Shown here: positions 12,021 to 48,313 of the stretch, in pieces | Layout: every line of letters starts with the position of its first letter | Position numbering within the stretch: position 1 is the stretch's first letter | DNA from: a virus | Lineage: Duplodnaviria > Caudoviricetes | Reading direction: 5' to 3' (one strand) | Length of the DNA stretch: 53,953 nt | Virus record (IMG/VR): IMGVR_UViG_3300005573_000115 | Coordinates: 1-53,953 of that record | Translations under genes and position numbers: made by a program | Notes under the pieces: model-generated | The model's database searches: none | The model's input: the letters and a program-made list of their open reading frames with translations, nothing else | What the model was told of the DNA's origin: nothing

Positions 12021-12026
12021 GAGAAG

Positions 12027-33764: not shown

Positions 33765-33794
33765 TTGACATCGGCGGTGGGCAGGGTGTAGACT
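33765..33794 (+). promoter_or_regulatory. Putative early promoter TTGACA-N18-TAGACT
   Basis: Upstream of the first plus-strand gene. Confidence 0.6.
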
Positions 33795-33946
33795 GACCTT
33801 AGCAGGAGTCGGTCCTGCGGTCCCTCTGTTGCTGGGGGCAGAATCCAGAGAGGGAGGTTGAGAATTGAAGGGAGCGACGCAGATTCAGTTCTGATCCAAC
33901 GACGCTAGATCCGTTTAGATCCAATTTCCCTGGGAGGGGACAAGAT

Positions 33947-34600
33947 ATGGCCAAGATGAAGATGCAGGGTAAAGCGTCAGAGACGCCTAGGCTCAGTACG
34001 CCAACGGCTACTGAGCCGTCTCCAACGAAGATCGACAGTATGCAGGCTAAGCCTGCAACGCTAGAGGCCAGAAGCGGGCATGATCCCGCTAAAAGGCCCT
34101 GGAAGTCCCTCATCAGTTACACCTACCGGCCTATGGGCTCTTTCCCCATAGGCCCCCAGGGTTTCCTTCCGCTCCCCACTCGGGGGACGAAGGAAGCTTA
34201 CGGCGTGACCGGAACGACGCTCCTCCGGGCGCTTCTCGAAGCCCGAGAGGAAGTCGTCCTAACCTCACTCGTAGGGGATCCCCAGCCTGACGGGGATTCC
34301 CTACAAGACGTCCTCACGTTGGCGGCATCGTCGACGGCATCGACGTGGTTGATCTATACCAAGCCGGGGGCTCTCGCGAGAGCCAAGGACAGACTGGCGT
34401 CCGGGTCCTGGGACGCCGTCGTCCGTAAGGTCACGGCCGCAGGTTGGGCCGTGCACCGGCAGTCAGGAGAAAACCGGCAGCTCCTTCGGGAGCTGTTCGA
34501 AAAGGCCATTGCAGAAGGCCGGCCCGTCAGCGAAGGCCGCGATGCGGCTGACGCTGACGACGCTGATGAGGAAGAGGAGGAGGAGGAAGCAGAGGAGTAG
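33947..34600 (+). CDS. Hypothetical early protein with acidic C-terminal tail
   Basis: SD GGGAGGGG; ends DAADADDADEEEEEEEAEE. Confidence 0.75.
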   Translation: MAKMKMQGKASETPRLSTPTATEPSPTKIDSMQAKPATLEARSGHDPAKRPWKSLISYTYRPMGSFPIGPQGFLPLPTRGTKEAYGVTGTTLLRALLEAREEVVLTSLVGDPQPDGDSLQDVLTLAASSTASTWLIYTKPGALARAKDRLASGSWDAVVRKVTAAGWAVHRQSGENRQLLRELFEKAIAEGRPVSEGRDAADADDADEEEEEEEAEE

Positions 34601-34627
34601 CCTCTGCTCCCTCTCCCGTATCCTGCA

Positions 34628-34675
34628 GAGGATCCCTGAGACGGAATCTCAGGGATCCTCCTTTTTTTGGGAGGG
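34628..34675 (+). terminator. Hairpin + U-tract + SD unit
   Basis: 14-bp stem GAGGATCCCTGAGA/TCTCAGGGATCCTC, T7, GGGAGGG. Confidence 0.8.
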
Positions 34676-34682
34676 ATGCCGT

Positions 34683-34898
34683 ATGACGAAGACACTGGGA
34701 TCATGCTCATTGGGGACCATATCCGCCGTTGGTGAGAAATTTCAACTCACTACCAGGGGCGGTAACAGCCTCCTTCTGACGAAGGAGGAACTTTCGGAAA
34801 TGCTTCTCTGGGCAATCGCCCAGAGAGAAAAGGAGCAGGAGATAAGACTACAACTTCCCACGGCATATGTGGCAAGTATGGTCCGTCTAGGATTCTGA
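34683..34898 (+). CDS. Hypothetical protein
   Basis: ATG 34683 behind SD. Confidence 0.6.
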   Translation: MTKTLGSCSLGTISAVGEKFQLTTRGGNSLLLTKEELSEMLLWAIAQREKEQEIRLQLPTAYVASMVRLGF

Positions 34899-34914
34899 CG
34901 CCTTCGGTTGCTCT

Positions 34915-34964
34915 GGAATCCCGAAGAACGAATTCTTCGGGATTCCTCTTTTTTTTGGAGGTGA
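34915..34964 (+). terminator. Hairpin + U-tract + SD unit
   Basis: 14-bp stem, T8, GGAGGTGA. Confidence 0.8.
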
Positions 34965-34969
34965 TGTCC

Positions 34970-35257
34970 ATGTCGTACAATGGCTGGACGAATCGCGAGA
35001 CCTGGGCCGTAGATCTCTGGCTCACAGATGAGCCGGGGAGAGTTCCTGACATAGAGGTTGCTCCCGATCCCGACAGTCTTCAGGAATATGTCGAGGATCT
35101 GTGGGAAGACTTCCGCAGATACGTGGCAGACCTGTGGAAGAAGTCAGTCGGTTCGTCGCATGGCGATTGGGTCGCCGACATGATCGACGACGCATTCGTC
35201 TATTGGGATAAAATCAACTGGGAGGAGATTCACAAAAACCTCTACAGCACCTTCTAA
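34970..35257 (+). CDS. Conserved phage protein (YNGWTNRETW family)
   Basis: MSYNGWTNRETWAVDLW...INWEEI. Confidence 0.75.
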   Translation: MSYNGWTNRETWAVDLWLTDEPGRVPDIEVAPDPDSLQEYVEDLWEDFRRYVADLWKKSVGSSHGDWVADMIDDAFVYWDKINWEEIHKNLYSTF

Positions 35258-35273
35258 AATCCGACTCTTGGTT

Positions 35274-35328
35274 AGAGAAACCCTCGAAGGGATTGCAACT
35301 TCGAGGGTTCTCTTTTTTTTGGAGGTGA
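35274..35328 (+). terminator. Hairpin + U-tract + SD unit
   Basis: AACCCTCGAAG/CTTCGAGGGTT stem, T8, GGAGGTGA. Confidence 0.8.
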
Positions 35329-35332
35329 GAAA

Positions 35333-36001
35333 ATGGAGAGGTATTCTCGTCAGGACGTAGACGGCAAGGCCGTCTATGTCACCTCGTCCCGGAACGGGGC
35401 GTGGGGTGCTTATCCCCACGCCATCGAAGAGGATCCCTGGGTCATACCGACGCGGATAGAGCGTCGATATGACCCCACATGGGATCCGTGGCTACCAGAG
35501 CCGCAGATCACGGCCACCCACGCCCTGGGCCTCGCCCACGGGCACGAGTGGGCAAGCATCCTCGGGCGAAACCCGTCCTTTCCGAAGGACGGTCTGTCCG
35601 CCTGGAATCTGGCGGGCAAGATCGAGATTACATGTAAAGGAAGAGGCTACACTCCTTCCTGGCAGGACCCGGAAGCCATTACGGGCATTCGGTTTCCCGA
35701 TCTTGTCCCTTATTGGCGTGGGGGTGCGATGCACATCCATCGCACCGCCACCGGCCGCCTCCGATGGGCAGTGATGCCCTCGGGGACGGCATACATCGCC
35801 GTGTACCGACCAGAGGGGCTCGCCCTCGCCGCCCGCGTCGGCTCCTCGTCCCGCCTGATCTACGTCGCGTACACGGACGTTCCCGTGTACGCGCGCCACG
35901 TAGGAGCCCTCCGTTATGCACTAGGAGCGTTAGGAGCGCTCGATGGTGAGCCGGATCTCACCGAGGCGGTACCAGTCCTTGGCGAAACATCTACGCGCTA
36001 G
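35333..36001 (+). CDS. Hypothetical protein
   Basis: 222 aa, strong SD. Confidence 0.7.
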   Translation: MERYSRQDVDGKAVYVTSSRNGAWGAYPHAIEEDPWVIPTRIERRYDPTWDPWLPEPQITATHALGLAHGHEWASILGRNPSFPKDGLSAWNLAGKIEITCKGRGYTPSWQDPEAITGIRFPDLVPYWRGGAMHIHRTATGRLRWAVMPSGTAYIAVYRPEGLALAARVGSSSRLIYVAYTDVPVYARHVGALRYALGALGALDGEPDLTEAVPVLGETSTR

Positions 36002-36019
36002 GCGGTATACGCCTAGCCC

Positions 36020-36083
36020 CACCTCCACAAAAAACGAAGCCTCGGAGAATTCGATCTCCGAGGCTTCGTTTTTTGTGGAGGTG
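36020..36083 (+). terminator. Perfect 29-bp inverted repeat covering U-tract and SD
   Basis: CACCTCCACAAAAAACGAAGCCTCGGAGA-ATTCGA-reverse complement. Confidence 0.85.
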
Positions 36084-36089
36084 AAATGG

Positions 36090-36332
36090 ATGGATAGCAT
36101 CTTGAGACCCACTCCGAAAAGGAGACCAATCATCGTGTCTCTATTCAACCCCGCTCACGAAAAACCGCGCTATGTGGTTTTCAAGGGCGGCAGATTCATC
36201 GTCTTCGGGGAGGGCGCGGTCGGCGGCGTTCCCGCCCTCCTGTGTGGGAGCGGATCCAGCAGTTTCTGGATCCGCCGGGAAGACGCCACCTTCGTCAAGC
36301 CGGGGACGGAGGCTTGGGACGCTCTCGGCTAG
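36090..36332 (+). CDS. Hypothetical protein
   Basis: ATG behind GGAGGTG. Confidence 0.6.
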   Translation: MDSILRPTPKRRPIIVSLFNPAHEKPRYVVFKGGRFIVFGEGAVGGVPALLCGSGSSSFWIRREDATFVKPGTEAWDALG

Positions 36333-36342
36333 GGAACCTCGT

Positions 36343-36392
36343 GAGGATCCTGGGAGGTTGCCCCTCCCAGGATCCTCTTTTTTTGGAGGTGA
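36343..36392 (+). terminator. Hairpin + U-tract + SD unit
   Basis: GAGGATCCTGGGAGG/CCTCCCAGGATCCTC, T7, GGAGGTGA. Confidence 0.8.
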
Positions 36393-36396
36393 AATT

Positions 36397-36528
36397 GTGA
36401 CAGAGATGCAGGTTTACGCTTCCGTGGAAGCGTATTTCGTGCTTTTGGCGGTCATCGTGATCGGAGCATATTTCCTGTCGGCGCTGGAAAATGCGCTGAC
36501 TCACCGAAGAAAGAAGCGCCAAAAGTGA
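36397..36528 (+). CDS. Small single-pass membrane protein
   Basis: YFVLLAVIVIGAYFL followed by RRKKRQK. Confidence 0.6.
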   Translation: MTEMQVYASVEAYFVLLAVIVIGAYFLSALENALTHRRKKRQK

Positions 36529-36532
36529 GCAC

Positions 36533-36575
36533 AAGAGGAGAGGGTTTCAACCCTCTCCTCTTTTTTTGGAGGTGA
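36533..36575 (+). terminator. Hairpin + U-tract + SD unit
   Basis: AAGAGGAGAGGGT/ACCCTCTCCTCTT stem, T-run, GGAGGTGA. Confidence 0.8.
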
Positions 36576-36581
36576 TGTTCC

Positions 36582-37145
36582 ATGGATAATGTGGTTTACG
36601 AGTTCGAGGAAGGCCACCGACGACTCCTGATTCTCTACGACGAGTTCCCCCCAAACCCCCAAACTGAGTTCTCGAATCTGGGAACGATGGTGTGTGGTCA
36701 TAGGCGATACATACTGGGGAACGAGCAGGTCTCCTCCGCGGAGGAGATGAACGAGAGGATTCGAGCGCTCCCGAAGGGAAGTCTCGTACTTCCTCTTTAC
36801 CTCTACGATCACTCGGGCGTGGTGATGCAGACAAGGGGATTCTCCGAGATCGACTCTCACGGGTGGGACTGGGGATGCGTAGGATTCGTGTACGCCACCC
36901 CCGAGAAGATCCGGGAGAGTTACATGGTCAAGCAAATCACCAAGAAGATTCGAGAGAGAGCCCAAAGCCTCTTGGAAAGTGAGGTGGAGACGTACAGCCA
37001 CTACCTTAACGGAGAGGTATACGGGTTCATCGCCTACGAAGACGGAGAGGAGGTGGATTCCTGCTGGGGGTTCTACGGGTGGGATTGGGATAAGAACGGG
37101 CTGACTGAACACCTGCCGGAAGAGTTCCGCCCGCTCCTTCACTGA
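36582..37145 (+). CDS. Conserved phage/MGE protein
   Basis: NLGTMVCGHRRY.LG, LPLYLYDHSG, YLNGEVYG, DSCWGFYG. Confidence 0.8.
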   Translation: MDNVVYEFEEGHRRLLILYDEFPPNPQTEFSNLGTMVCGHRRYILGNEQVSSAEEMNERIRALPKGSLVLPLYLYDHSGVVMQTRGFSEIDSHGWDWGCVGFVYATPEKIRESYMVKQITKKIRERAQSLLESEVETYSHYLNGEVYGFIAYEDGEEVDSCWGFYGWDWDKNGLTEHLPEEFRPLLH

Positions 37146-37160
37146 TCCCCATGTGTGAGT

Positions 37161-37213
37161 AGAGAGGGAGGGCATTTTACTATGCTCTCCCTCTCTGTAT
37201 TTTTGGAAGGGAG
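37161..37213 (+). terminator. Hairpin + U-tract + SD unit
   Basis: AGAGAGGGAGGGCAT/ATGCTCTCCCTCTCT, T-run, GGAAGGGAG. Confidence 0.7.
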
Positions 37214-37223
37214 ATGAGATTTC

Positions 37224-37335
37224 GAGAGCGGCTCCTACTCCTACGCTACACTCTTCGACGAGGTGGCGTACTGGCGGAAGGCTAACGCCGTCCACAGTTG
37301 GTTCATGATGCACGCCCAGGACAAGGAGACTTTTC
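37224..37335 (+). pseudogene. Fragment of a YWRKAN-motif phage protein
   Basis: LFDEVAYWRKANAVHSWFM, out of frame with the ATG following the SD, and truncated. Confidence 0.55.
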
Positions 37336-37369
37336 GGTCATCTTCCTCACTTTTTTTGGAGGTGATCCC

Positions 37370-37714
37370 ATGGAGAAGATCCGTGTTCTGGTCTTTCCGC
37401 AGGATGGGAGTGGGGTTCGGGAGGAAAAGATCGCGAACGACTGGAAGGAGATGCAGAAGATCGTAGGGGGGTTCTTCGAGGCCGTCTCTCTTCTGCCAGA
37501 GGGTTACACCCTCTACTGCAACGAAGATGGGCTCGCAGAGAACCTTCCTCCCAACCCTTACACCAGACTTCTGGGACGAGACATCGCTTCGATGGTGCTC
37601 TGCCCGGATGGCCATCATATCCTGGGCACCTTCTTCGTCTCAAAGGAGGACGAGGAAGGAGAGTCCGTATCCCTGACAGATGAGGACATTTCGTTCATTC
37701 TGTCGGACGCCTGA
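37370..37714 (+). CDS. DUF3846-like protein
   Basis: MQKIVGGFFEAV, LYCNEDG...LPPN, ILGTFFV, SLTDE. Confidence 0.8.
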   Translation: MEKIRVLVFPQDGSGVREEKIANDWKEMQKIVGGFFEAVSLLPEGYTLYCNEDGLAENLPPNPYTRLLGRDIASMVLCPDGHHILGTFFVSKEDEEGESVSLTDEDISFILSDA

Positions 37715-37732
37715 CATCCCAAGTCAGGCGAT

Positions 37733-37947
37733 AGCCCCCGGAGTTTTCTCCGGGGGCTCTCTTTTTTTTGAGGGGGTTTCCCCCTTTCACCTCCCAGGGA
37801 CACGGGAGGGGGCAGAGAATGCTCCCTCCCGTTCTTTGTTTGGTGGAGAAAAACCCAAGCGACTAGACGAGTCTCTAGTCTCTACGTTCCAGAAGAAGCC
37901 TCGCTCGAAACTCGGGCGGGGCTTCTCATTTTTCTGAAGGGAGGTGA
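37733..37947 (+). terminator. Cluster of at least three hairpin + U-tract units with no intervening gene
   Basis: AGCCCCCGGAG/CTCCGGGGGCT T8; GGGAGGGGGCA/TGCTCCCTCCC; GAAGCCTCGCTCG/CGGGCGGGGCTTC T5 GGGAGGTGA. Confidence 0.7.
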
Positions 37948-37952
37948 CAGAG

Positions 37953-38168
37953 ATGAAGGTGAGTTTGTTTAACCCCACCAGCGTCAAGACCGTCTTCTTC
38001 CCAGACCCAGAGATCTTCGCCGTCGTAAGGATGGAGAGTGATCGAGGATCAGTGGATGTGTTCATTGATTGTCCACAGTGGGAGGCCGCCGCTGAGATGT
38101 TGGAGAAGGCGGCGAGAGAGCTTCGTGCAGCCGCAGAGTCACATGCGGCGGAAGCGGTGGTCTCCTAG
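37953..38168 (+). CDS. Hypothetical protein
   Basis: ATG behind GGGAGGTG. Confidence 0.65.
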   Translation: MKVSLFNPTSVKTVFFPDPEIFAVVRMESDRGSVDVFIDCPQWEAAAEMLEKAARELRAAAESHAAEAVVS

Positions 38169-38298
38169 GTCTGACTGAGACGATGGTTTCGAGACAGGGA
38201 GGGGAGGACTTCGGTCCTCCCCTTTCTATTTAAGGAGGAGGTGATTCTAGAAACGCAGTCCCGTGACTGATACTTTTGGATGAGAGGAGCATGGTTGT

Positions 38299-38997
38299 GT
38301 GAGTCATTTTCTGACGGCGGTGATCTCCCGGTCGGGAAGCGAGGAGGAGACAAGAAACCTTCTCGCTCCGTTCGACGAGGGGATCGAGGTTGATCCCTAC
38401 GAGAAGCGATGCTGGTGCGTCGGATCCAAGGCACGTGCAGACGTGCTTGCGGAACTGGCGAAGACGATCGGCGTCTATGAGAATCTGGATGAGGCGTTCT
38501 GGAATTCTCATAGAGGGAAGATGGAGGAGGACCCTCTGTGGGCCTGTAGCACGGAAGCGCTACTGGAGCATCACAAATGGATGTCCGAGTTCGATCAGGC
38601 AAAGGAGCAGGCGCTTCTCCAGCATCCTCTGCGGAACGTCCCAGAAGCCGGATGCTCTCAGTGTCACGGGAGCGGAGTCTACGTGACGACCCAAAACCCA
38701 CGGAGCAAGTGGGACTGTTGGGAGATAGGAGGGCAGTTCAACGGGGAGATAACCGGACGACGGATCAGGCCGGACGTGGTTCGCATCGAGGACAACAGAG
38801 TCCCGGTTCCGATCATGCTGGAACTAGAGATCATTCCGTTCGCCCTGATCACGCCAGATGGAGAGTGGCACGAGAGAGGGTCCATGAGATGGTTCGGTCC
38901 GCCTCTCAATCTCAGAGACGACTGGCCGGACGAGGTGCGAAAAATCCTCTCGCAGCATCGAGAGTGCATCGCTGTGGGAGTGGACTGTCACATTTGA
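38299..38997 (+). CDS. Conserved phage protein with CxxCxGxG
   Basis: SHF..V, NPRSKWDCWEIGG, PFALITPDGEWHERG, VDCHI. Confidence 0.8.
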   Translation: MSHFLTAVISRSGSEEETRNLLAPFDEGIEVDPYEKRCWCVGSKARADVLAELAKTIGVYENLDEAFWNSHRGKMEEDPLWACSTEALLEHHKWMSEFDQAKEQALLQHPLRNVPEAGCSQCHGSGVYVTTQNPRSKWDCWEIGGQFNGEITGRRIRPDVVRIEDNRVPVPIMLELEIIPFALITPDGEWHERGSMRWFGPPLNLRDDWPDEVRKILSQHRECIAVGVDCHI

Positions 38998-39053
38998 GTG
39001 AGCGCCGCAAAGGAAGAGAGGATCATAGGGCACCACAAAAGGAGGAGATCGAG

Positions 39054-39560
39054 ATGCCCAAGTCCAAGTCCCAATTTGACCTTAGTGGAGCGCCGGAGGA
39101 CGTGGCGGCCTACTGCCGCCTCGCGTGGAAAAGGTCCTCACCGGCGGCGTATTCGATGTGGATTGATAGGATCCCGGAAATCATCCAGGCCCCTGCCCTC
39201 GCTGATGATCCCAATCGGCCTTATCGGATCGCCGACTGGGCGGTGAGGGAGGTGGCGGGAGTTAGGTGCGCGCCCATCATGGACGCGGCGACCGCACGGG
39301 CGGCCCGCGAAAAAGCAGACTACGCCGCCTCCTTCGCCCCTTCCGCCTCTGCCGAAGCCGTCTACACCGACGTCCGCTCCGCCGCCGCCCACGCCGCCGA
39401 CACATTTGCTACGCCCCCCGCCGCCGCCGCCGACATGTATGCTGCGTCCGTCGCCGCCTACAGAGCTGCCTCCTCTGCCGCTCACGCGGTGCGGCGCTCC
39501 CTGGAGCGTGACGCCCTCTTCCTGGAGGGCCTCGGCGTACTGCTAGGCCTTCCCGCCTGA
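39054..39560 (+). CDS. Ala-rich hypothetical protein, paralog A
   Basis: ATG behind GGAGGAG; aligns with 40296-40817 (PEDVAAYCR.AWK..PEI.QAP.LADDP.RP.RIADWA.R); TGA lies in ribozyme core. Confidence 0.75.
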   Translation: MPKSKSQFDLSGAPEDVAAYCRLAWKRSSPAAYSMWIDRIPEIIQAPALADDPNRPYRIADWAVREVAGVRCAPIMDAATARAAREKADYAASFAPSASAEAVYTDVRSAAAHAADTFATPPAAAADMYAASVAAYRAASSAAHAVRRSLERDALFLEGLGVLLGLPA

Positions 39561-39603
39561 CGAGGCCGGAAGGCCGAAACTCCCCGCAAGGGGAGTCGCG
39601 GGA
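39551..39603 (+). ncRNA. Type I hammerhead ribozyme
   Basis: TCCCGC-CTGACGA-GGCC(GGAA)GGCC-GAAA-CTCCCC(GCAA)GGGGAG-TC-GCGGGA: complete core, all three stems, GUC cleavage triplet 39595-39597. Confidence 0.92.
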
Positions 39604-39634
39604 TACCCGCAAGATTGAGGAGGAGGAGATCAGG

Positions 39635-40030
39635 ATGAAGTGTCAGCACCCTAGCATCCGAATCGTGCGGGAGGAGGCCTTCGTGGGCCCCTTGGGCGTC
39701 CTCGATGAAGAGCCTCGTGCTCACGGGGGAGTCCAAATTACTGAGCGGTGCGCCGACTGCGGAGCAGAACGCACCGTGAACGCAAATCAGGGGTTCCGCG
39801 AGGAAGGTCCCTGGGAGACGCAGGCGTACCGTCGCTTGGCGGACATTGGGGTCCACGTTCTGGGCGTCCAAGGTGGAATCGCCACCGTACAGTCGGGGCC
39901 GTTCCTCGAAAGGGTGACTGTGGCTTCCGTGCGGGCGGCTGCTCATCAGAGCGACGCCATGGCGGCTGCGATCTACCTCGATGTGATGGATCGCATCATG
40001 GAGCTGTCCGGTCCTCGAACGCGTCGGTAA
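39635..40030 (+). CDS. Hypothetical protein
   Basis: C.H...AHGGV...ERCADCGA.R..N.N...EEGPW; strong SD. Confidence 0.7.
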   Translation: MKCQHPSIRIVREEAFVGPLGVLDEEPRAHGGVQITERCADCGAERTVNANQGFREEGPWETQAYRRLADIGVHVLGVQGGIATVQSGPFLERVTVASVRAAAHQSDAMAAAIYLDVMDRIMELSGPRTRR

Positions 40031-40059
40031 ACGACAAGAAGAAGAAGGAGGAGATAGAT

Positions 40060-40272
40060 ATGATCCGTACCGAGTGCGCCGTGTGCTCCAGGGCCGGTCA
40101 GGACAACGCCGCCACACACATCGTGACATGGCACGATCCGCTCTTCCTGGGTGTATCCAGAGAAGAGCCAGTCTGTGGAGAGTGCGCACGGCAGGTTGGC
40201 GATCAGGGTACTGTGCGCCTTATGGGCGATTCCGGGGATGAGTGGGCAGGGGAGTCGCGGGATACCCGCTGA
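40060..40272 (+). CDS. Small zinc-binding protein
   Basis: CAVC...VCGEC; SD GGAGGAG. Confidence 0.6.
   Translation: MIRTECAVCSRAGQDNAATHIVTWHDPLFLGVSREEPVCGECARQVGDQGTVRLMGDSGDEWAGESRDTR
40248..40269 (+). repeat. 3' half of the hammerhead unit
   Basis: AGGGGAGTCGCGGGATACCCGC is identical to the two full copies. Confidence 0.85.
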
Positions 40273-40295
40273 TCCGAAAGAAGGAGGAGATCAGG

Positions 40296-40817
40296 ATGAC
40301 CCAGTTCCAGTATTCCGAACTTTACTTGAACTTGATTGGAGTGCCGGAGGACGTGGCGGCTTATTGTCGTCACGCGTGGAAAAAGTCCTCATCGGTGGCG
40401 CATTCTCGGTGGAAAGAGCGGAACCCGGAAATCGTCCAGGCTCCGAAGTTGGCCGATGATCCGGGGCGGCCCTTCCGCATTGCTGATTGGGCCATGAGGC
40501 GGGTGGCAATAGTCTTCTCTGCTCCCCCCATCGTAGACATACAGAGCGCATGGGCGGCCATCGAAGAAGCGAGATACAGAGGCTCCTTCGGCCTTTCCGC
40601 CCGGGGCGAAGCCGTCCACAGAGCTGCCTGCTCCGCCGCCGCCCACGCCGCCGACACATTTGCTACGCCCCCCGCCGCCGCCGCCGACATGTATGCTGCG
40701 TCCGTCGCCGCCTACAAAGCTGCCTCCTGCGCCGCTCAAGCGGTGCGGAGCGGACCGAAGCGTGATGCCCTTTTGTTGGATGGCCTCAATGTACTGCTAA
40801 ACTCACGCCACGCCTGA
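40296..40817 (+). CDS. Ala-rich hypothetical protein, paralog B
   Basis: Paralog of 39054-39560; TGA lies in ribozyme core. Confidence 0.75.
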   Translation: MTQFQYSELYLNLIGVPEDVAAYCRHAWKKSSSVAHSRWKERNPEIVQAPKLADDPGRPFRIADWAMRRVAIVFSAPPIVDIQSAWAAIEEARYRGSFGLSARGEAVHRAACSAAAHAADTFATPPAAAADMYAASVAAYKAASCAAQAVRSGPKRDALLLDGLNVLLNSRHA

Positions 40818-40860
40818 CGAGCCCGGAAGGGCGAAACTCCCCGCAAGGGGAGTCGCGGGA
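40809..40860 (+). ncRNA. Type I hammerhead ribozyme, second copy (short stem I)
   Basis: CGC-CTGACGA-GCCC(GGAA)GGGC-GAAA-CTCCCC(GCAA)GGGGAG-TC-GCG; compensatory stem II change; GUC 40852-40854. Confidence 0.85.
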
Positions 40861-40883
40861 TACCCGCAAAGGAGGAGATCAAA

Positions 40884-41552
40884 ATGTCCAATTTCCAGTC
40901 CCAGCCGCTACTTGCATGGCACTTTCTACGAAAAGGCGGCGTCACACGCGACGGGCAAACCGTCACGGTGGGGAGCCGTATGCACGTGAACCCCCCTGTG
41001 ATCATGGGCGAGCGCGAGCTTCACGCATCACTCAGGCTGCTCGACGCCCTGCGCTACACGTCGTTTAGTCCAGTCGCGTGCCGAGTTCGCATGAGTGGCG
41101 AGATCATCAAGGGATCAGACAAAATCGTCGCCACCGACCGAGAGGTGCTGGCAATGGTGGACGCGACCAAAATTCTCCATGAGTTTGCCTGCGTGGTGGC
41201 GGAGGAAGCCCTGCAAAAGGCGGGGGTTACTGACAAACGCTCTTGGAATGTCATCGCTTTGAAAAGGCGTTGGCTGTCTGGCGATGATAATGACAGGGAA
41301 TTCTCAGCGGCTAAGGCGGCGGCTAGGGAGGCGGCTGAGGCGGATTGGCGGGTGGATAGGAAAGCTAGCGCGTCTAGGGCGGCTAAGGCGGCGGCTAAGG
41401 CGGCGGTTTGGGCGGCGGATTTGGCGGCTGAGTCGGCGGCTTTTGAGGCGGTCAGCTCGGTTTTGGAGGGGTTTCGGGGGGAGGAGTTTGAGGCAGAACG
41501 TTCTCGCCTCAACGACATTCTCACGCGGATGGTCGAGGAGGCGCTGTTGTGA
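40884..41552 (+). CDS. Conserved phage protein with Ala-rich helical C-terminus
   Basis: LAWHF, LHAS..LDALRY, ILHEFAC, KRRWL.G. Confidence 0.75.
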   Translation: MSNFQSQPLLAWHFLRKGGVTRDGQTVTVGSRMHVNPPVIMGERELHASLRLLDALRYTSFSPVACRVRMSGEIIKGSDKIVATDREVLAMVDATKILHEFACVVAEEALQKAGVTDKRSWNVIALKRRWLSGDDNDREFSAAKAAAREAAEADWRVDRKASASRAAKAAAKAAVWAADLAAESAAFEAVSSVLEGFRGEEFEAERSRLNDILTRMVEEALL

Positions 41553-41986
41553 GGCGTGCCTTTTTCGTCCGACGGGAACCTTCCGTTGACGCCGCCCAAG
41601 CGTCACTGGAACGGGGGCGTAGCGTGCGCTCTTGGAGTGCGTATGGAATGTGTGCCCACGTCCTGCAAGACTGGGCGGAGGACGGCCTTGTGCCGCCCCT
41701 CTGTGAGGCGGAGGAAGTCCCGCCCCTGAGCGGGGATAACGACCGCCGCTGTGCGAGATGTAGGCTTGAGGATGCTCCGGCCTACGCGCACTTCCTGCCC
41801 GGCCTTTGCGCCATCGCCGAGGGCGACGATGCAGATGAGGCCCTAGAGATGGGCATCCGAGGGTCTACTTACGACTGGCTCCCAGTGCTGGCTCTTTTCG
41901 AGGGCGAGGAGGTGGGCACGGATCCTGACGAAGGATGGACCTTGTTTCGGCCTACGCGTCTCTTGTGGGCACGCGAGTATGAGTGA
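41549..41986 (+). CDS. Hypothetical protein
   Basis: GTGA overlap; GLCA, LFEG..VG.DPDEG..LFRP. Confidence 0.6.
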   Translation: MRRAFFVRREPSVDAAQASLERGRSVRSWSAYGMCAHVLQDWAEDGLVPPLCEAEEVPPLSGDNDRRCARCRLEDAPAYAHFLPGLCAIAEGDDADEALEMGIRGSTYDWLPVLALFEGEEVGTDPDEGWTLFRPTRLLWAREYE

Positions 41987-41998
41987 CAGATTCCGTGA

Positions 41999-42043
41999 AG
42001 CGCCTCCTGTGAGACATCCGGAGGCGCTCTTTTTTTGGGGAGG
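41999..42043 (+). terminator. Hairpin + U-tract + SD unit
   Basis: AGCGCCTCC/GGAGGCGCT, T7, GGGGAGG. Confidence 0.7.
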
Positions 42044-42077
42044 CGATAGGTGATAGAGTGAAGATGGAACAGGTTCT

Positions 42078-43232
42078 GTGCCATCCAGTTTCGGATCAAA
42101 AGAGTCAAAGGAGGTTCCACCATTGTCAGTTTCTGTTGCCGAAGTGCCCATCGCCGTGGAGGCGTCTGCTTTGAGAAAGGCGCTGGACGCCCTGAAGCCC
42201 CTTGTCGATAGCCGCACCTACATTGACGAGATGGAGTGCATCCTCATCAAGTCGAACGAGAATCGCACCGCTCTGAGCCTGAGCGCCACGAACGGGGACT
42301 GTGGAGCCACCATCACAATTCCGGCCCGTGTCTCAAAGGACATCGAGGTGCTGGTGACAGCAGAGCAGTTCCGATCCGTCATCCCCAAGACCGGGGGCGT
42401 GATGATTCGTACCCTCGAAGACGCTCTGGAGGTGTTGAACGATCTTGGTACCTTCCAGTGCAAAACTAAGGCCCCGGAGGGGACCTTCTGGAAACAGCCC
42501 GAGTGTGATACACCTCCTTCCATGACGATCCGCTCTGAGGAGTGGGATCGCATCGGGAAGATCACCCAACGCTATCAGCAGAGCAGGAAGGAGTATGCGC
42601 TTCCGGTGCTGGCGGGTGTTCACGTCGTCGTCGAAAACGGTCAGGTACACGTCGAGGCCAGCGACAATTTCCGACTCGTCAGCATTCTGGCAGGAGCCGA
42701 GGAGGTTGCGAAGACTCCGGGCAGGATCGACAAGGTGGTCTCGGATTGGAGCCGTCTCACAAAGGTGATCATGCATGGGGGCGAGACGGCGACGGTCTTC
42801 CTGACGGATCATCACATGATCGTCAGAACGGAAGGCAGCACCGCCTGGAGCGTCTACAGGGAAGGAGTCTTCCCGCAGAGCGAGCGACTGTTTGACAAGC
42901 CCTACGAGAGCAGAGGAGTGGTGCCGGACGCCGTTCGGAAGAACGCGTTGAAGAAGCTTCGTCTCACGAAGGCGTTCGTGGAGGATCGCAAGCACCCCAA
43001 GGTCTGCGTCCGTGTGGCGGACGGCGACATCGCGGTGTCGGTCGAAGATGTCGCGAAGGAGCAGTTCGAGAGCGAGGGATGGATCTGCCTGAATCCCAAT
43101 TTCCTGGCGGACGCCCTGGAATCCCTGGACAATCTGGAGTGGAGTCAGATAGGACCCACCAGCCCGATCCAAATCACCTCCGGTTCGGTGAAGGCGCTTG
43201 TTCTCCCGATTAAGCCCTTCTGGATGGCGTAG
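42078..43232 (+). CDS. dnaN: DNA polymerase III beta sliding clamp-like protein
   Basis: LSATN, PVLAGVH, EASDNFRL, GVFP, LNPNFLADAL, SPIQI, ALVLPIK. Confidence 0.75.
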   Translation: MPSSFGSKESKEVPPLSVSVAEVPIAVEASALRKALDALKPLVDSRTYIDEMECILIKSNENRTALSLSATNGDCGATITIPARVSKDIEVLVTAEQFRSVIPKTGGVMIRTLEDALEVLNDLGTFQCKTKAPEGTFWKQPECDTPPSMTIRSEEWDRIGKITQRYQQSRKEYALPVLAGVHVVVENGQVHVEASDNFRLVSILAGAEEVAKTPGRIDKVVSDWSRLTKVIMHGGETATVFLTDHHMIVRTEGSTAWSVYREGVFPQSERLFDKPYESRGVVPDAVRKNALKKLRLTKAFVEDRKHPKVCVRVADGDIAVSVEDVAKEQFESEGWICLNPNFLADALESLDNLEWSQIGPTSPIQITSGSVKALVLPIKPFWMA

Positions 43233-43295
43233 ACAACTCTATGGATTCCCCCTCTAGGTTCAGAGGGGGAGTTCACTTTTCGGAGAGGAGGCGAC

Positions 43296-43505
43296 GTGAT
43301 GATTTGTGACATCTGCGGCGAGTCTATCAGAGATACGGTCTATACCATTGAATCGTCAGAGTACCGTGGGCAGTTCTGGGGATCTCCCGCATACGAGACT
43401 ATGGTGTACCGAGTCTGCGGGGAGTGCGCTGACTACGGATATGTCATCGACGAGGAGTCACTCGAAGACGAGGAAGACGAGGATCTCGAAGACGAGGAGA
43501 TGTGA
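43296..43505 (+). CDS. Small zinc-binding acidic protein
   Basis: CDIC..EYRGQFWGSPAYE..CGEC; SD GAGGAGG. Confidence 0.65.
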   Translation: MMICDICGESIRDTVYTIESSEYRGQFWGSPAYETMVYRVCGECADYGYVIDEESLEDEEDEDLEDEEM

Positions 43506-43507
43506 GA

Positions 43508-43962
43508 TGGCTCACCTGCCCGTCCGATACACGAGACTTGTGCATCATTGGGCTGACCCGCCTCGCTACACCCGAATCTACGGAAGTCTGGAGGAGCTGC
43601 GCCAGAGGCGTGAGGCTCTCCTTGAGATTCTCCGGGACAGCGGCGCTCCCGATGTCATCCTCCAAGCGCTGGTAGTCGTGGAGCGGGAAGGGCATCCGCC
43701 CTTCCTGTTCTGCCCCACCGGCAAGGGCGTGAGGGACCCGATCCAGCCGCCCGATCCTGTGCCTGATGGCGACGGGTTTCTGTGCCCGAGCGACGGACAG
43801 CACCTGGGTAGGGTCGGGAGGAGGTCCTTCCACTGTCATCTGTGCCGCCGACTGTATGTGCAAGGGTCCGATGGATGGGAGGTCCCCCAAGGAGACCGAA
43901 GAAGACAGTCGCTGGAGCGAATTGAGGTTGAGAAGGTTCTACGCAGGGAGACTTCGTTGTAG
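43508..43962 (+). CDS. Hypothetical Cys-containing protein (start approximate)
   Basis: MAHLPVRY.. behind GAGGAG; CP..CP..CHLC. Confidence 0.55.
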
Positions 43963-43985
43963 TAGAATCAGGATGACCAAGGGAG

Positions 43986-44534
43986 GTGGAGCGGATGAAG
44001 ATTGTGAAGAAATCCTATCTTCTTCTGCCCGAGGACGTATGGCCCTTCGGGGAGAGACGCTGCCTCCCGATCATCCATCCTCTAACGATACGATCTCGTG
44101 TGGATATGACTCTGCCCGATTTCATACTGATTTGGCTCTCCGTCCGACTCGGAGCCAACAAGTACGATCGGGGGTTTGTTACTCACGACGGATCGTGGGT
44201 TGTTGAAGAGGAGATAACCGAGGGAGATATTCTAGATGGGTGTTGGGAGAGTGTTGATGATCCTGGGGAAAAGAGCCTGTACCGAGCCGAATTTCAGGTG
44301 GAGGGCAAAGACCTTACACAGTCCTACGTCTGCCTTCGGCGTCTGTTCCCGAGCGAAGCGAAGATGCTCCTGGAATCCCAAGATGGGGACAGGTTTCTGA
44401 AAGAGATGGGCTTGGCAGAGCTGGGCATCCTCTCCACTTTCGAGCGGATGGACCCTGACAAGAGGTTTCGGCTGATTCTGGCGCTGAATCGCGTCTACCG
44501 TCCCAACCATCTAGACCAGTCCAACAAGAATTGA
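43986..44534 (+). CDS. Hypothetical protein
   Basis: 182 aa, SD GGGAGG. Confidence 0.6.
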   Translation: MERMKIVKKSYLLLPEDVWPFGERRCLPIIHPLTIRSRVDMTLPDFILIWLSVRLGANKYDRGFVTHDGSWVVEEEITEGDILDGCWESVDDPGEKSLYRAEFQVEGKDLTQSYVCLRRLFPSEAKMLLESQDGDRFLKEMGLAELGILSTFERMDPDKRFRLILALNRVYRPNHLDQSNKN

Positions 44535-44553
44535 GCATGGGGAGGTTCCGAGG

Positions 44554-45687
44554 ATGAACATTGATGACAGAGCGACAGTCACGATCTCGGAGGCGAAGGA
44601 GGTGCTTCGCAAAGTAGCGATTCAGGAGCCCGAAATCTCGGTGGCGCTGTGGTCTCTTCCCGGCATCGGCAAGACGGCGATCTGCCATCAGGTGATCGAG
44701 GAGGCAAATCGGGAACTGCCGGAGGACAAGAGGTTCAAAGGGCTGCTGGACATCCGCCTCGTCTCGCACAACCCCGTCGATCTTGCGGGGATCCCCCGCT
44801 TCGTGCAGGACGGAGACAGCGAGTTCGTTCGGTGGACGCCTACGGAGATGTTTTATAACCTGTCGAAGGACCGGTACCTCGTTCTGCTGGACGAACTCAC
44901 GACCGCACCGGCGGCCTCGATGAACGCGGGTCTGGAGATCGTCTGGGAGCGCAAGTCAGGACCGATCAGATTCCGCGACGACACGGTGATCGTGGCGGCG
45001 GCAAACCCCATTGAGTCCCTGGCCGCCGTCTCTCGTCTGACAGCGCCGCTCGCCAATCGGTTCGCTCTTCACCTCACCATTCGCCCGGACGTGGACGCCT
45101 TTGCAGAATACGCCCTCGCCAACGGACTGCACCCGTCCATCTCCTCCTATCTGCGATTCCGGCCGGAGCATCTCCTGAAGATGCCGGACGCCAAGGGGGA
45201 CATCCAGGGATGGCCATCGCCCCGCTCCTGGGAGTCTCTCTCGAAGATCCTGTTGCTCTACGGAATCCGCCCTGGGGACAAGGCACCTCTGGATCTGGTT
45301 CAGGGGGCGGTCGGCAACGAGACGGGGCGCGAGTTCTGCGCCTTCAACTCGATCACCGGACTTTCCTCGTGGGCGGACGCCATCGCCAAGCAGGGTGTGT
45401 CGGCGGGAGTCGTGACATCGGATCCGGGGGCGCTCTACGCCCTGGAGGGGGTGCTGGCTCCCACGTACACGCAGAAACTGCCGGAGAAGGAATCGGACCA
45501 CATCGCGGAGTGGGTGTTGGAGCACCTGAACATCGCTCTCCAGACCCTGTTCTTCCGGGACGTGACCATTCTGACGAAGGACGATGGGGAGAAGCGCAGA
45601 CAGGTGATCATGAGCGCTCCGTTCACCCAATGGGCGCAAGAGCACCGGGAAGCTTTGCTTCGGTTCGAGGGGAGTAGCTCGAAATGA
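44554..45687 (+). CDS. MoxR-type AAA+ ATPase
   Basis: LPGIGKT, DIRL...PVDLAGIP, LLDEL, AAN, PLANRF, PSPRSWE. Confidence 0.9.
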   Translation: MNIDDRATVTISEAKEVLRKVAIQEPEISVALWSLPGIGKTAICHQVIEEANRELPEDKRFKGLLDIRLVSHNPVDLAGIPRFVQDGDSEFVRWTPTEMFYNLSKDRYLVLLDELTTAPAASMNAGLEIVWERKSGPIRFRDDTVIVAAANPIESLAAVSRLTAPLANRFALHLTIRPDVDAFAEYALANGLHPSISSYLRFRPEHLLKMPDAKGDIQGWPSPRSWESLSKILLLYGIRPGDKAPLDLVQGAVGNETGREFCAFNSITGLSSWADAIAKQGVSAGVVTSDPGALYALEGVLAPTYTQKLPEKESDHIAEWVLEHLNIALQTLFFRDVTILTKDDGEKRRQVIMSAPFTQWAQEHREALLRFEGSSSK

Positions 45688-46124
45688 GTGTTCTTGTCTG
45701 CCTCCCCGAAGACATCGGAGGAGGATGGTGGGATGAGGGGCAGGGAGTGGCGTTTCGGGACTGGCAGTCTATGGAGGGCTTCGACGACGCCATTTCAATG
45801 CTGAACATCCCGTGGGTGGTGCCCCTTCGTCGGTCATCGCTGGGGGCTTACAGGGGCGATGTGGACACATGGCTCTATCGGCTTCGGCTCTACATCCGTC
45901 AGGCGGACAACTTTCTGGAGGACGTGAGCCAGCCGCCGCCCTGGAGAGCCGTCTCACAGATCAGCGACAGCCGTGCCAGAGCGGAGTACGTGCTCTACAG
46001 CAAGATCGGCGAGCTGCAGGACTTCTCCCGCAGTCTGATCCGCCAGCGCCGATGCGATTTCGTCTACTTCGACACAGCGCTCAGATCCTCTCGGGGAGTG
46101 ATTGAGATGAGAAGGCATGCCTAA
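45684..46124 (+). CDS. Hypothetical protein
   Basis: 146 aa between MoxR and VWA genes, overlapping both. Confidence 0.6.
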   Translation: MSVLVCLPEDIGGGWWDEGQGVAFRDWQSMEGFDDAISMLNIPWVVPLRRSSLGAYRGDVDTWLYRLRLYIRQADNFLEDVSQPPPWRAVSQISDSRARAEYVLYSKIGELQDFSRSLIRQRRCDFVYFDTALRSSRGVIEMRRHA

Positions 46125-47385
46125 GTCCGTAGGGGAGACCAAGCTGGAGGAGGCGATCCTGAGAATCGTCGTGGACTCGCCCTTCTTCCGAAGCCTTGTC
46201 ACCTATCTGAACTTCGAGGTCTACCCTGGGGAGTGTCCGATCACATCCTCGGACGGAACGCATCCGGTCGGGGGCATCCAGACGGGGGACCGGGTGATCC
46301 TGTATGAGAACGGGATCATTCGCATGACGAGCGACGAGCTGACTGGGATCGTCATGGAGCAGATTCTTCACGCCGCTCTCGCCCACCCCGCCAGGAGGAG
46401 AGGGCTTCCTGACGAGACGGCATGGAGGACGGCTGCGGATCTCGCCGCATGGCAGCTGGAGGCTGAACATGCTCTCTGGCTGACGATGCAGGGCAAGAGC
46501 CGCCCTCGGGTCCCCGACGTGAAGGCGATTGCCGGGGCGTTGCGGGAGGCCCTCGGAGTTCCTCTCTTCGACCCGTCCGTACAGACGGAGGAGGAGATGT
46601 ATCGGCTTCTGGAGGGAAACATGGGGGGACTCGGTCTGGGAGCGATTCCTCAGAGAGACTCCCATGAGTGGGAGGATCCTGACGGGGAAGGCACCTCCTC
46701 GGATGACTGGAGCGACCGCCTTCAGAGCGCCGCTCTCCAGCAGGAGATGGCTGAGGAGGGAAGTCCGAAGAGGGGCTACGACCCCCTGGGATTCCGACGC
46801 ATCGTGAAGCGCCGCCTCACCCCGGCAGTCTCCTGGCAGTCGGTGCTTCTTCCCTACCTGACGAGGGACCGAAACGAGTACGATCCTCTCTCATGGGATC
46901 GGCGGTTCCTCCACAGGGAGGAGTTCTGGTGGCCTGACCTGTCGGATGAGGAGACTCTCAGAATCTGCATCGCCGTGGACAACTCCGGGTCAGTGCTCGA
47001 CGACACGCTCGCTCGGTTCTTCACTGAGATGTTCAGCGTTCTCTCCATGTACCGCACGGAGGCGACGCTTCTCTCCTTCGACGCCGCCGTGCACACGAAG
47101 ACGGTGGCGAGCTGGCGGGAGGGATTCGATCCTGACGAGCTGGCGTCCTTCTTCAAAGGAGGAGGGGGCACGGACTACGAACCCGTGTTCGAATGGCTGG
47201 AGAAGGAGGGGATGAAGCCTGATGTGCTCCTGATCCTGACAGATGGGCTCTGCACCTGGGAGGATCGCAACCCGGACTTCCCAGTTTTCTGGGGGATCTG
47301 TCCGTGCTCTGGAACGTATGACGAGTTCCTTCGGATAGCGTCTGTCATTCCCTATGGAACCCCGATCTTCATACCTTCTCCGTGA
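46117..47385 (+). CDS. DUF2201-like metallopeptidase-fold + VWA domain protein
   Basis: AWRTAADLA, VSWQSVL, MIDAS DNSGS, GGGGTDYEPVF, LTDG. Confidence 0.85.
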   Translation: MPKSVGETKLEEAILRIVVDSPFFRSLVTYLNFEVYPGECPITSSDGTHPVGGIQTGDRVILYENGIIRMTSDELTGIVMEQILHAALAHPARRRGLPDETAWRTAADLAAWQLEAEHALWLTMQGKSRPRVPDVKAIAGALREALGVPLFDPSVQTEEEMYRLLEGNMGGLGLGAIPQRDSHEWEDPDGEGTSSDDWSDRLQSAALQQEMAEEGSPKRGYDPLGFRRIVKRRLTPAVSWQSVLLPYLTRDRNEYDPLSWDRRFLHREEFWWPDLSDEETLRICIAVDNSGSVLDDTLARFFTEMFSVLSMYRTEATLLSFDAAVHTKTVASWREGFDPDELASFFKGGGGTDYEPVFEWLEKEGMKPDVLLILTDGLCTWEDRNPDFPVFWGICPCSGTYDEFLRIASVIPYGTPIFIPSP

Positions 47386-47484
47386 CACGTCGGAAGGAGA
47401 GTGTGTTTTGATAGCACAGGACGAAGACGACCGAATCCAGGGCGAGTTACACGGTTGGAAGTGGATGTGAGGAGGTGGAATGGA

Positions 47485-47700
47485 ATGTCCGCTGATCTGA
47501 ACGGGATGACGAGGAAGGACCCGATCGATCTGATTCAGGAGGCGCAGAGCCGATACATGCAGGCGAAGGAGACGTGGGCCATCGCCGATCACAGCGACCC
47601 GCTGGTGGAGTCGGTCCTGTGGCTCCGTAGGGAGAGCGCCCGTCTGTCTTTAGAGATTCTGATAAGGGACTTTCGCTGCGGGAAGGGGACGGAGGCATGA
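47485..47700 (+). CDS. YaaL/DUF2508-like small helical protein
   Basis: IQEAQSRYMQA...DPLVESVLW...SARLSLEILIR pattern; SD GAGGAGG. Confidence 0.45.
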   Translation: MSADLNGMTRKDPIDLIQEAQSRYMQAKETWAIADHSDPLVESVLWLRRESARLSLEILIRDFRCGKGTEA

Positions 47701-47900
47701 CAGCGAATCAGATGGCGCAGGCCCAGCGAGATCTGGCGGAGATGGGGTGGGTGGCGTTCGACGGCCTTCAGGATTTGCAGGACTTCCTGGCCTCCTCCCG
47801 ACTGCTCCTTCAGGGGAAGGTGGGGATATACCGACGCACAGGCTCCGGGGGGTGGATGATGGAGGTTACGGAGGATGCACGAAAGGGGGACAAAACATGA
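47697..47900 (+). CDS. Hypothetical protein
   Basis: ATGA overlaps on both sides. Confidence 0.6.
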   Translation: MTANQMAQAQRDLAEMGWVAFDGLQDLQDFLASSRLLLQGKVGIYRRTGSGGWMMEVTEDARKGDKT

Positions 47901-48313
47901 GAGTGCTCTGCCTGGGAAACCCGAAGATGATGCGAGACGCCTTCGGCCCGATGGTCGGGTCCGCCCTGCATCGGAAGTCGCCCTCTCTCCAGATCCTCGG
48001 AACGATGGAGTCGCCTATCTGGGGCGACAAGCTGACTCCCACAGCGGTGCGGTGGCTGGATCTACGGCAGGGGTCAGGAATTCTGGTGGACACCGTGTAC
48101 CCTCCTGTCGTTGAGGGTCTGACAGGAAGCGAAAACGGTCTGTACATCGTGTCGCAACCCAACATCGTGAGCGGGGGAGCCCACTTCCGAGCCGAGTACG
48201 GTGTGTTTTGGCGTATCGAGTCGGCCTACGGTAAGATCCCCAGAGACGTGATCGACGAGGGTGTTAGGCTGGTGGAGCAGATTGTTAGCGTGGCAGATAG
48301 CTCATGTGCGTAG
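47897..48313 (+). CDS. yyaC: YyaC-like spore protease homolog (shortened)
   Basis: VLCLG....RDAFGPMVGSAL...ILGTMESPI...ILVD matches the YyaC pattern. Confidence 0.65.
   Translation: MRVLCLGNPKMMRDAFGPMVGSALHRKSPSLQILGTMESPIWGDKLTPTAVRWLDLRQGSGILVDTVYPPVVEGLTGSENGLYIVSQPNIVSGGAHFRAEYGVFWRIESAYGKIPRDVIDEGVRLVEQIVSVADSSCA

Follow-up and report, generated by a model that had tools for sequence, protein, structure and literature searches.

Type I hammerhead ribozymes at two gene junctions of an uncultured phage

The DNA of IMG/VR virus record IMGVR_UViG_3300005573_000115 (53,953 bases, estimated completeness 63%), which was analysed over its full length and is here called the window, carries at positions 40808-40860 of its + strand an element that is identified by its sequence as a type I hammerhead ribozyme, as is a twin element at 39551-39603. 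The twin is referred to below as copy 1 and the element at 40808-40860, the main subject of this analysis, as copy 2. Copy 2 very probably belongs to a common class of hammerheads located at phage gene junctions. We lean, with a good deal of reserve, towards the view that it undergoes useful self-cleavage in vivo and thereby processes the operon in which it lies, in the manner set out below.

Anatomy of the two hammerheads

Every conserved position of the hammerhead core can be read directly in the + strand sequence between 40814 and 40854, together with three helices in the type I order (Table 1). Positions within the motif follow the conventional hammerhead numbering. The core comprises CUGACGA, GAA, the A40836-U40853 pair and an H at position 17, which is C40854. 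Stems II and III are capped by loops, stem I is open, and each pair adjacent to the core (G40821-C40832, G40855-C40813 and A40836-U40853) is of a standard type. Stem I of copy 2 has three contiguous pairs (GCG/CGC) followed by G.A and then G-C; bulging of A40810 gives it five G-C pairs. The hammerhead consensus was applied as it is quoted in PMC3088659, where acceptance allows no change of the core and no mispair at 10.1-11.1, 1.1-2.1 or 15.1-16.1, and neither window copy departs from these rules.

Copy 1 spans 39557-39597 from its core to the predicted cut, and its product hairpin at 39598-39610 is identical to that of copy 2. The blocks 39554-39612 and 40811-40869, which contain most of the two elements, are identical at 57 of 59 positions (97%). 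The sole differences are the two sides of pair 10.2/11.2, where G39565-C39574 in copy 1 is replaced by C40822-G40831 in copy 2 with retention of pairing. By our own arithmetic, two random substitutions in a 59-nucleotide (nt) block would fall on the two partners of a single pair and preserve its pairing in ~0.4% of cases. The coding DNA just upstream of the blocks is only 81% and 75% identical. The original prediction for this region had named a core and a stem III common to both copies, a cut after 40854, a pairing-preserving double change in stem II (GCCC/GGGC rather than GGCC/GGCC), a stop codon within CUGA and only three contiguous stem I pairs in copy 2; direct reading agrees with each of these points and adds the bulged stem I register.

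The strict pattern has exactly two sites in the record, both on the forward strand, and the reversed control pattern has none. A loose descriptor, defined as the core plus three stems of at least 3 base pairs (bp), finds just the same two sites on both strands of the whole window; over 200 dinucleotide-preserving shuffles of the window it yields a mean of 0.015 sites, with any site at all in 3 of the 200. The pattern CTGANGA...GAAA...TH taken alone is uninformative, with 9 matches against 7.05 expected. Since the copies are paralogous, they count as one non-chance origin plus retention rather than as two independent origins.

The genes that precede the two hammerheads, para1 and para2, each encode about 170 amino acids and share 59% identity over 127 of them. 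The open reading frames (ORFs) 38577..39560 and 40242..40817 each terminate at the UGA of the CUGA core, and the final codons of para2 make up the 5' strand of stem I. In the alignment of the paralogous genes two 30-column bins (~39391-39450 and the counterpart within 40296-40817; coordinates approximate, as derived from that alignment) are 100% identical, and identity elsewhere is 53-87%. Gene conversion could thus explain part of the identity between the copies.

Besides the two intact copies, which are 1257 nt apart, the region holds one remnant. Positions 40248-40269 are identical to both hammerheads over 22 nt and are followed by the same kind of leader. Upstream of them the alignment is fragmentary, without CUGA, GAAA or the 5' strand of stem III, and the covariance model of the class described below has no match there at E up to 10. 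The remnant sits in the last codons of a 70-residue CxxC...CxxC ORF (40060-40272), zinc-ribbon-like, whose stop follows the hairpin. It looks like a decayed module, one of three, that has lost its ribozyme.

Table 1 Features of the hammerhead region and its surroundings.
Feature	Positions	Strand	Remarks
Stem I 5' strand (positions 2.6-2.1)	40808..40813	+	inside coding sequence
Core CUGACGA (C3-A9)	40814..40820	+	stop UGA at 40815-40817
Stem II, GCCC / GGAA loop / GGGC, 4 bp	40821..40832	+	pair C40822-G40831 corresponds to a G-C pair in copy 1
Core G12 A13 A14 (GAA)	40833..40835	+	
Stem III, 7 bp from A15.1-U16.1 (A40836-U40853), GCAA loop	40836..40853	+	
Predicted cleavage site, C17 (40854) / G1.1 (40855)	40854..40855	+	from its place in the hammerhead consensus
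Stem I 3' strand (40855-40860); alternative 5-bp hairpin with 40863-40867	40855..40867	+	minimum-energy folds
Shine-Dalgarno leader AGGAGGAGATC and ATG of downstream gene	40870..40886	+	start 29 nt after the predicted cut
Downstream gene, 222 amino acids, weak DUF7666 similarity	40884..41552	+	Pfam E 0.0002, 22.2 bits, cut-off 27
para2, gene upstream of copy 2, 173 amino acids, no known family	40296..40817	+	ORF list, translation
First hammerhead (copy 1), 6-bp stem I	39551..39610	+	core at 39557, cut predicted after 39597
para1, paralogous gene preceding copy 1	39054..39560	+	
Competing 5' helix of copy 1, 8 + 4 pairs	39546-39575	+	minimum-energy fold -46.3 kcal/mol, z -6.5
Third-module remnant, final 22 nt (stem III 3' strand, UC, hairpin)	40248..40269	+	
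Five leader sites	39037-39057, 39618-39638, 40043-40063, 40279-40299, 40867-40887		

A class of phage gene-junction hammerheads

A 24-nt collecting pattern, CTGANGAG-NNN-GGAA-NNN-CGAAAC, was derived from the window copies. In viral contigs it has 110 matches on 101 stretches, and the three free stem II positions are complementary in 109 of the 110. The same pattern in 596 Gb (gigabases) of cellular genome contigs has 57 matches against a chance estimate of ~70; stem II is paired in only 19 of the 57, and complete hammerheads number 12. This contrast between viral and cellular DNA ties the class strongly to phages. A pattern for a GGAUA subfamily matched 34 stretches of metagenome contigs and none in genome contigs.

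The matches, including the two of the window, were parsed for stems I and III; 7 of the 112 resisted owing to truncation, a mispaired stem I or a long stem III. The parser accepted a match only if it had 2 or more pairs in stem I and 3 or more in stem III, a rule that introduces a slight bias towards pairing. The seed alignment excludes duplicates, copies that lack 10-nt flanks and those whose stem III hairpin exceeds 24 nt, and contains 85 distinct sequences, 83 of them from outside the window. With the window left out, 98.9% of the cells in this alignment pair, compared with 64.8% after column shuffling and 27-40% when partners are slid. The covariation score is 0.823 versus 0.171, none of 500 shuffles reaching the observed value, and covariation is strong in all three stems. 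Both sides change at 12 of the 15 pairs, and the three invariant pairs are those fixed by the collecting pattern or the parser. The 10.2/11.2 pair, the only one to differ between the window copies, is CG in 39, GC in 25, UA in 12 and AU in 7 of the 83 sequences. The fold thus shows both-side changes across the class and one compensatory pair within the window. The original prediction had held that the fold is under selection and had named covariation among homologues as its check; the class alignment, the variation at 10.2/11.2 and the low chance of a compensatory double change argue for it, with the caveat of gene conversion between the copies.

A covariance model built from the 83 non-window sequences scores copy 1 at 64.5 bits (E 1.7e-17) and copy 2 at 52.6 bits (E 8.7e-14), within the 25-74 bits of class members; the next best site in the window has 14.1 bits. 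Agreement in the core and loop II arises by construction because the pattern was taken from the window's own copies, but that pattern did not impose the match seen in stems I and III or in the conserved U that follows stem I. The U at position 1.7, conserved in more than 90% of the class, occurs in both window copies.

The class shares the genomic context of the window copies. Of 103 parsed members, 95 have an ORF of 40 or more codons whose end falls inside the core or no more than 30 nt before it. The commonest stop position lies 7 nt before the core, within the 5' strand of stem I (36 of the 95), and in 20 of the 95 the stop is the core's own UGA, a count that is perhaps inflated since that UGA is always an available candidate. 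A Shine-Dalgarno sequence and a start codon follow within 150 nt in 80 of the 103 members. The median distance from cut to start is 33 nt, compared with 37 nt in copy 1 and 29 nt in copy 2. Between 2 and 11 model hits occur in 16 of 100 class loci, and the window likewise carries more than one copy on the coding strand of consecutive phage genes.

Proposed operon processing and its alternatives

The genes around the copies lie on the + strand, and among their products are a DUF3846 protein, the weak DUF7666 match, a DNA polymerase sliding-clamp homologue, an ATPase and an HNH endonuclease. No terminator-like site with at least 6 pairs was found on the + strand between 37926 and 43250, and no T run follows any of the hairpins. 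The common strand and the lack of a terminator-like site make co-transcription across both hammerheads plausible. Under the favoured reading, early or replication-region phage genes would be transcribed as one long RNA, the three helices of copy 2 would form, and the RNA would cut itself between C40854 and G40855. The upstream message would then carry a 2',3'-cyclic phosphate at its end, just past the stable hairpin of stem III, and the downstream message, from the DUF7666-like gene onward, would start with a 5'-hydroxyl G. The short stem I would dissociate and the first 13 bases of the product would refold into the hairpin GCGGG-AUA-CCCGC, which starts at base 1 of the predicted 3' product, has a calculated energy of -8.7 kcal/mol and ends 2 nt before the Shine-Dalgarno sequence AGGAGG.

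A 5'-terminal stem-loop protects bacterial mRNA from 5'-end-dependent decay. The refolding would be expected to make the cut irreversible, to shield the new message from such decay by a structured 5' end and to insulate the ribosome-binding site from its upstream context. Before cleavage the product hairpin would compete with stem I, and copy 1 would face, in addition, competition from a helix formed with the upstream codons. With such helices in place, cleavage would probably be slow or conditional, and probably unequal at the two junctions.

Several results weigh against this reading, the first of them being the calculated folds. Neither copy forms the hammerhead in its minimum-energy fold, where copy 2 adopts three separate hairpins and either copy forms the downstream 5-bp product hairpin, in which the stem I 3' strand pairs with the bases that follow it. 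The cost of the hammerhead was calculated with 20 nt of upstream and 30 nt of downstream flank by enforcing stems II and III and the inner three pairs of stem I, keeping the core unpaired and leaving the rest free. By nearest-neighbour energies, which ignore tertiary contacts and give a ranking of sequences rather than a prediction of activity, the hammerhead lies above the minimum by 13.1 kcal/mol in copy 1 and 7.8 kcal/mol in copy 2, with a predicted stem I probability of about 0 in both. The median cost in the class is 0.7 kcal/mol (quartiles 0-2.3, maximum 9.8, n = 91); copy 1 is costlier than every one of these members, and copy 2 is matched or exceeded by a single one. Copy 2 stands out in its stem I too: at most 4 contiguous pairs are found in 6 of 103 members and exactly 6 in 78 of them.

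The second concerns curated models. At gathering score, Rfam reports no hammerhead in the whole window, and the best sub-threshold matches, to Hammerhead_II at 18.9 and 16.7 bits (threshold 37), are in the wrong, permuted register. The Rfam families Hammerhead_1, Hammerhead_II, Hammerhead_3, HH9, HH10 and RAGATH-1-hammerhead share the catalytic core of the window copies, yet none of the Rfam hammerhead families reaches its gathering score for the window or for any of 18 pattern-defined hammerheads in ten class loci (release 15; L011, L020, L025, L031, L057, L058, L069, L097, L098 and L105). A typical class member scores 17.6 bits with RAGATH-1-hammerhead, whose threshold is 56.3. Because the same models miss 18 of 18 class members, the Rfam negative is uninformative for this subclass, which the released models appear not to cover. 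The sole Rfam report across the ten loci is a Type-P5 twister in L069 at 11164-11219 on the + strand (61.8 bits, gathering 37.6), ~250 nt downstream of the hammerhead at 10858-10914; this arrangement is the known twister-hammerhead neighbourhood.

The third is the evolutionary record of the region itself. Close relatives of the phage region, against which the conservation of both copies could be judged, were not found in the searches made here. Among 5.8 billion protein clusters, searched at near lengths only, para2 has no relative beyond itself and its paralogue, a 79,730-base contig encoding the same protein; of 33 viral contig stretches that fit its peptide pattern, none was confirmed; tblastn against GenBank phages gave no relative; and a DNA pattern fixing stem III had no match in viral contigs. 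The downstream gene has two distant relatives in viral contigs (L003 and L004), neither with a hammerhead by the descriptor, and these were the only matches when 18 window proteins were compared by tblastn with all fetched loci. Gene conversion may contribute to the identity between the copies and is a live alternative to selection in explaining it. Moreover, one of the three putative modules has already decayed, which shows that decay happens once a ribozyme is not maintained. The random decay of the core that would speak against the original prediction is seen at this third junction and in neither copy. The dead module has kept, or has recently copied, its hairpin and leader at a place where the hairpin cannot be a 5' end, and a cap is impossible.

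The product hairpin was examined across the class, where its standing as a general feature was largely rejected by four related tests on overlapping data. Helices of at least 4 bp from base 1 occur in 38 of 89 products against 38.5 in shuffles, those of at least 5 bp in 10 against 18.9 and are if anything depleted, and compact product hairpins occur in 14 of 75 against 13.8 expected, all of which tells against the hairpin as part of the general design. Stable hairpins (-5 kcal/mol or better) are found in 4 of 75 products against 1.1, a number that 5 of 300 shuffles reach, and in 7 of 77 against 3.24 when model hits in 100 loci are used. The stable ones are confined to a single one of these 100 viral loci, L063, with all 7 non-redundant copies there and none of 70 elsewhere.

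The one strong result is that for L063. This IMG/VR phage contig carries 11 type I hammerheads at successive gene junctions over ~8 kilobases (~5825-13470, minus strand). All 11 of its 3' products have a hairpin from base 1 or 2, with energies of -5.1 to -8.7 kcal/mol, followed by a conserved CCCAAGGAGGA-type leader, and the 10 distinct products differ in helix sequence. When heads are joined to the tails of other copies, a mean of 4.0 of the 10 form stable hairpins, and all 10 do so in a single one of 1000 permutations; shuffling the tails lowers the mean to 2.0, and none of 1000 such trials attains 10. L063 resembles the window in combining a junction hammerhead with a Shine-Dalgarno leader and, ahead of that leader, a hairpin that opens the 3' product at its first or second base. 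It differs from it in that hairpin and stem I are nearly isoenergetic (0-4.5 kcal/mol, compared with 7.8 and 13.1 kcal/mol in the window) and in its loop II sequences, and no protein similarity to the window region was detected at E 1e-4. Single examples of the same layout occur in two metagenome loci (L132 and L133) and one genome locus (L163). We read the combination of hammerhead, product hairpin and ribosome-binding site as a lineage-specific cassette.

The competing helices of the window are not what random flanks would give. When the 3' flank of copy 2 is shuffled, the hammerhead cost is as high as observed in only 2 of 1000 cases. In copy 1 the sequence 39546-39558, which contains the last para1 codons, the 5' strand of stem I, C3 and U4, pairs with 39563-39575, which contains A9, stem II and loop II, and none of 1000 shuffles of the 5' flank reaches the observed cost. 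Both copies are, in these models, embedded in non-random competing helices, which is unusual for the class. With the 5' flank trimmed, the hammerhead of copy 1 costs 0.0 kcal/mol without the 3' arm of the hairpin and 2.7 kcal/mol with it, and the corresponding value for copy 2, with the 3' hairpin as sole competitor, is 8.0 kcal/mol. The latter two values are in line with the earlier proposal that the weak stem I of copy 2 allows the downstream hairpin to compete better. The ranking that this proposal implied, with an efficient copy 1 and a weak copy 2, holds for the 3' hairpin alone and is reversed in full context, where copy 1 is the more costly; it was incomplete because copy 1 has a stronger competitor, the 12-pair helix, that had been overlooked. 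It is plausible that the two junctions are tuned to different efficiencies, in a direction that is not readable from the sequence.

The same energies could be explained if the copies were recently inactivated relics, i.e. once-active hammerheads now trapped in alternative folds whose near-identity stems from duplication or gene conversion and not from selection. Such relics would account for a hammerhead cost at or past the extreme of the class, for the decay of the third module to its last 22 nt, for the two fully identical bins of the paralogues and for the two non-standard pairs in stem I of copy 2, and the lack of detected relatives leaves long-term conservation unsupported. Nonetheless, we judge this explanation unlikely. 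Neither core has lost a conserved position, and the copies differ solely by one compensatory double change; the energies omit the tertiary contacts that stabilise natural hammerheads; L063 keeps 11 hammerheads, with covariation, in the presence of a competing fold-back hairpin; and copy 1 folds as a hammerhead, or nearly so, once its 5' flank is removed.

The 5' helix of copy 1 is in its own right a candidate anti-ribozyme element, and a further possibility is that the ribozymes are gated, the helix keeping copy 1 off until ribosomes or high temperature melt it, such that cleavage would report upstream translation or temperature. The helix is non-random in the flank shuffles and by its z of -6.5, and it covers the stop codon and the codons that precede it. 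The cost of the copy 1 hammerhead drops from 13.1 kcal/mol at 37 C to 5.0 kcal/mol at 70 C, and that of copy 2 at 70 C is 4.9 kcal/mol in a poorer stem I register. Two DNA sequencing runs match the window, of which one, labelled hot springs metagenome, contains 0.92 of the window's sequence words; this run may be the sample of origin and is therefore not independent support for gating by temperature. However, the logic of the switch is unclear, since a ribosome that reaches the stop codon would sit on the core and on the 5' strand of stem I as well; the helix is known from a single sequence without comparative support; and no similar competitor occurs in any of the 91 class members. Gating is accordingly a distinctly improbable explanation in our estimate. 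That the elements are not ribozymes at all, the three hairpins of the minimum-energy fold serving instead as a protein-binding, ribonuclease processing or transcription signal in keeping with the Rfam negative, is most improbable given that all core positions are correctly placed between helices (0.015 sites per window by chance), that the class model scores 52.6 and 64.5 bits, and that no T run or terminator-like site accompanies the hairpins.

Further observations concern the surroundings of the operon and the sequencing runs. A near-identical leader (AGGAGGAGAT, a few bases, ATG) precedes five consecutive genes (Table 1), and AGGAGGAGATC with at most one mismatch occurs 17 times in the window against 3.5 expected. 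Upstream of the hammerhead operon, the segment 34628-37926 on the + strand has eight strong terminator-like hairpins (11-17 pairs and a T run) among small genes; a terminator scan of 33000-48000 gave 23 sites against 10.5 expected. No RNA run was among the sequencing runs that match the window. Contigs of the DNA runs aligned to the window show no variant within either hammerhead, and they break at the repeated blocks. One run contains a diverged version of the DUF7666-like gene (40914-41226, 62 differences in ~310 bases) with a different upstream sequence, which points to a related phage variant in the same kind of sample.

Relation to known systems and significance

Clustered hammerheads that flank phage genes have been known since 2011 (PMC3088659), and the window copies are further members of this group. 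Perreault et al. 2011 described clustered prophage hammerheads flanking genes, three arrays of which cleaved in vitro, and proposed that they process long phage transcripts (PMC3088659). A 2019 review, which likewise cites the clustered prophage hammerheads, their in vitro cleavage and the proposed processing of polycistronic phage RNA, describes the purpose of phage and prophage hammerheads as still undefined (PMC6765202). The window resembles the arrays of Perreault et al. in its canonical core and in having several coding-strand copies that flank single genes or short blocks. It differs from them in being an uncultured phage contig with flanking genes that lack relatives and with unusually strong competing helices; the supplementary alignments of that paper may already show the subclass with a 4-bp stem II, a GGAA loop and a 6-bp stem I, or the hairpin. 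A literature search confined to one library of papers without their supplements found no product-capping hairpin described for natural phage hammerheads.

The nearest engineered counterpart is RiboJ, whose authors suggest that the terminal hairpin left by cleavage may raise mRNA stability and that the hairpin helps to expose the ribosome-binding site (PMC6206723). As described there, RiboJ and the window module have in common the order of hammerhead, hairpin and ribosome-binding site, and a 5' end that bears, or in the window would bear, a hairpin after cleavage. RiboJ was engineered from the sTRSV hammerhead, and its hairpin-containing ribozyme part stays on the downstream message. In the type I topology of the window, by contrast, the body of the ribozyme would be left on the upstream fragment, and the hairpin would be formed from the 3' strand of stem I itself. 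The likeness is one of working principle and not of family membership.

A bolder proposal is that the module is an evolved 'cut-and-cap' cassette, a natural counterpart of RiboJ, gated by the anti-ribozyme helix and possibly able to re-ligate across copies. We hold this to be a long shot. If it were true, the message freed by self-cleavage would at once fold its first bases into a protective hairpin, and ribosome traffic or temperature would decide when the operon is cut. Since the 3' strand of stem I is identical in both copies, the pair could re-ligate across 1257 nt, and the three intervening genes would then be skipped or circularised.

For phage biology, the analysis has three implications. 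The 24-nt pattern recovers a large and nearly pure class of gene-junction type I hammerheads that the Rfam models miss. In at least two unrelated phage contigs the predicted 3' product opens with a hairpin just ahead of a ribosome-binding site, an arrangement that suggests a testable function, namely that the downstream message is stabilised and insulated. Finally, the window offers a natural series in which one copy combines a full stem I with a 5' anti-helix, a second has a weak stem I, and an apparently dead third keeps only its hairpin and leader.

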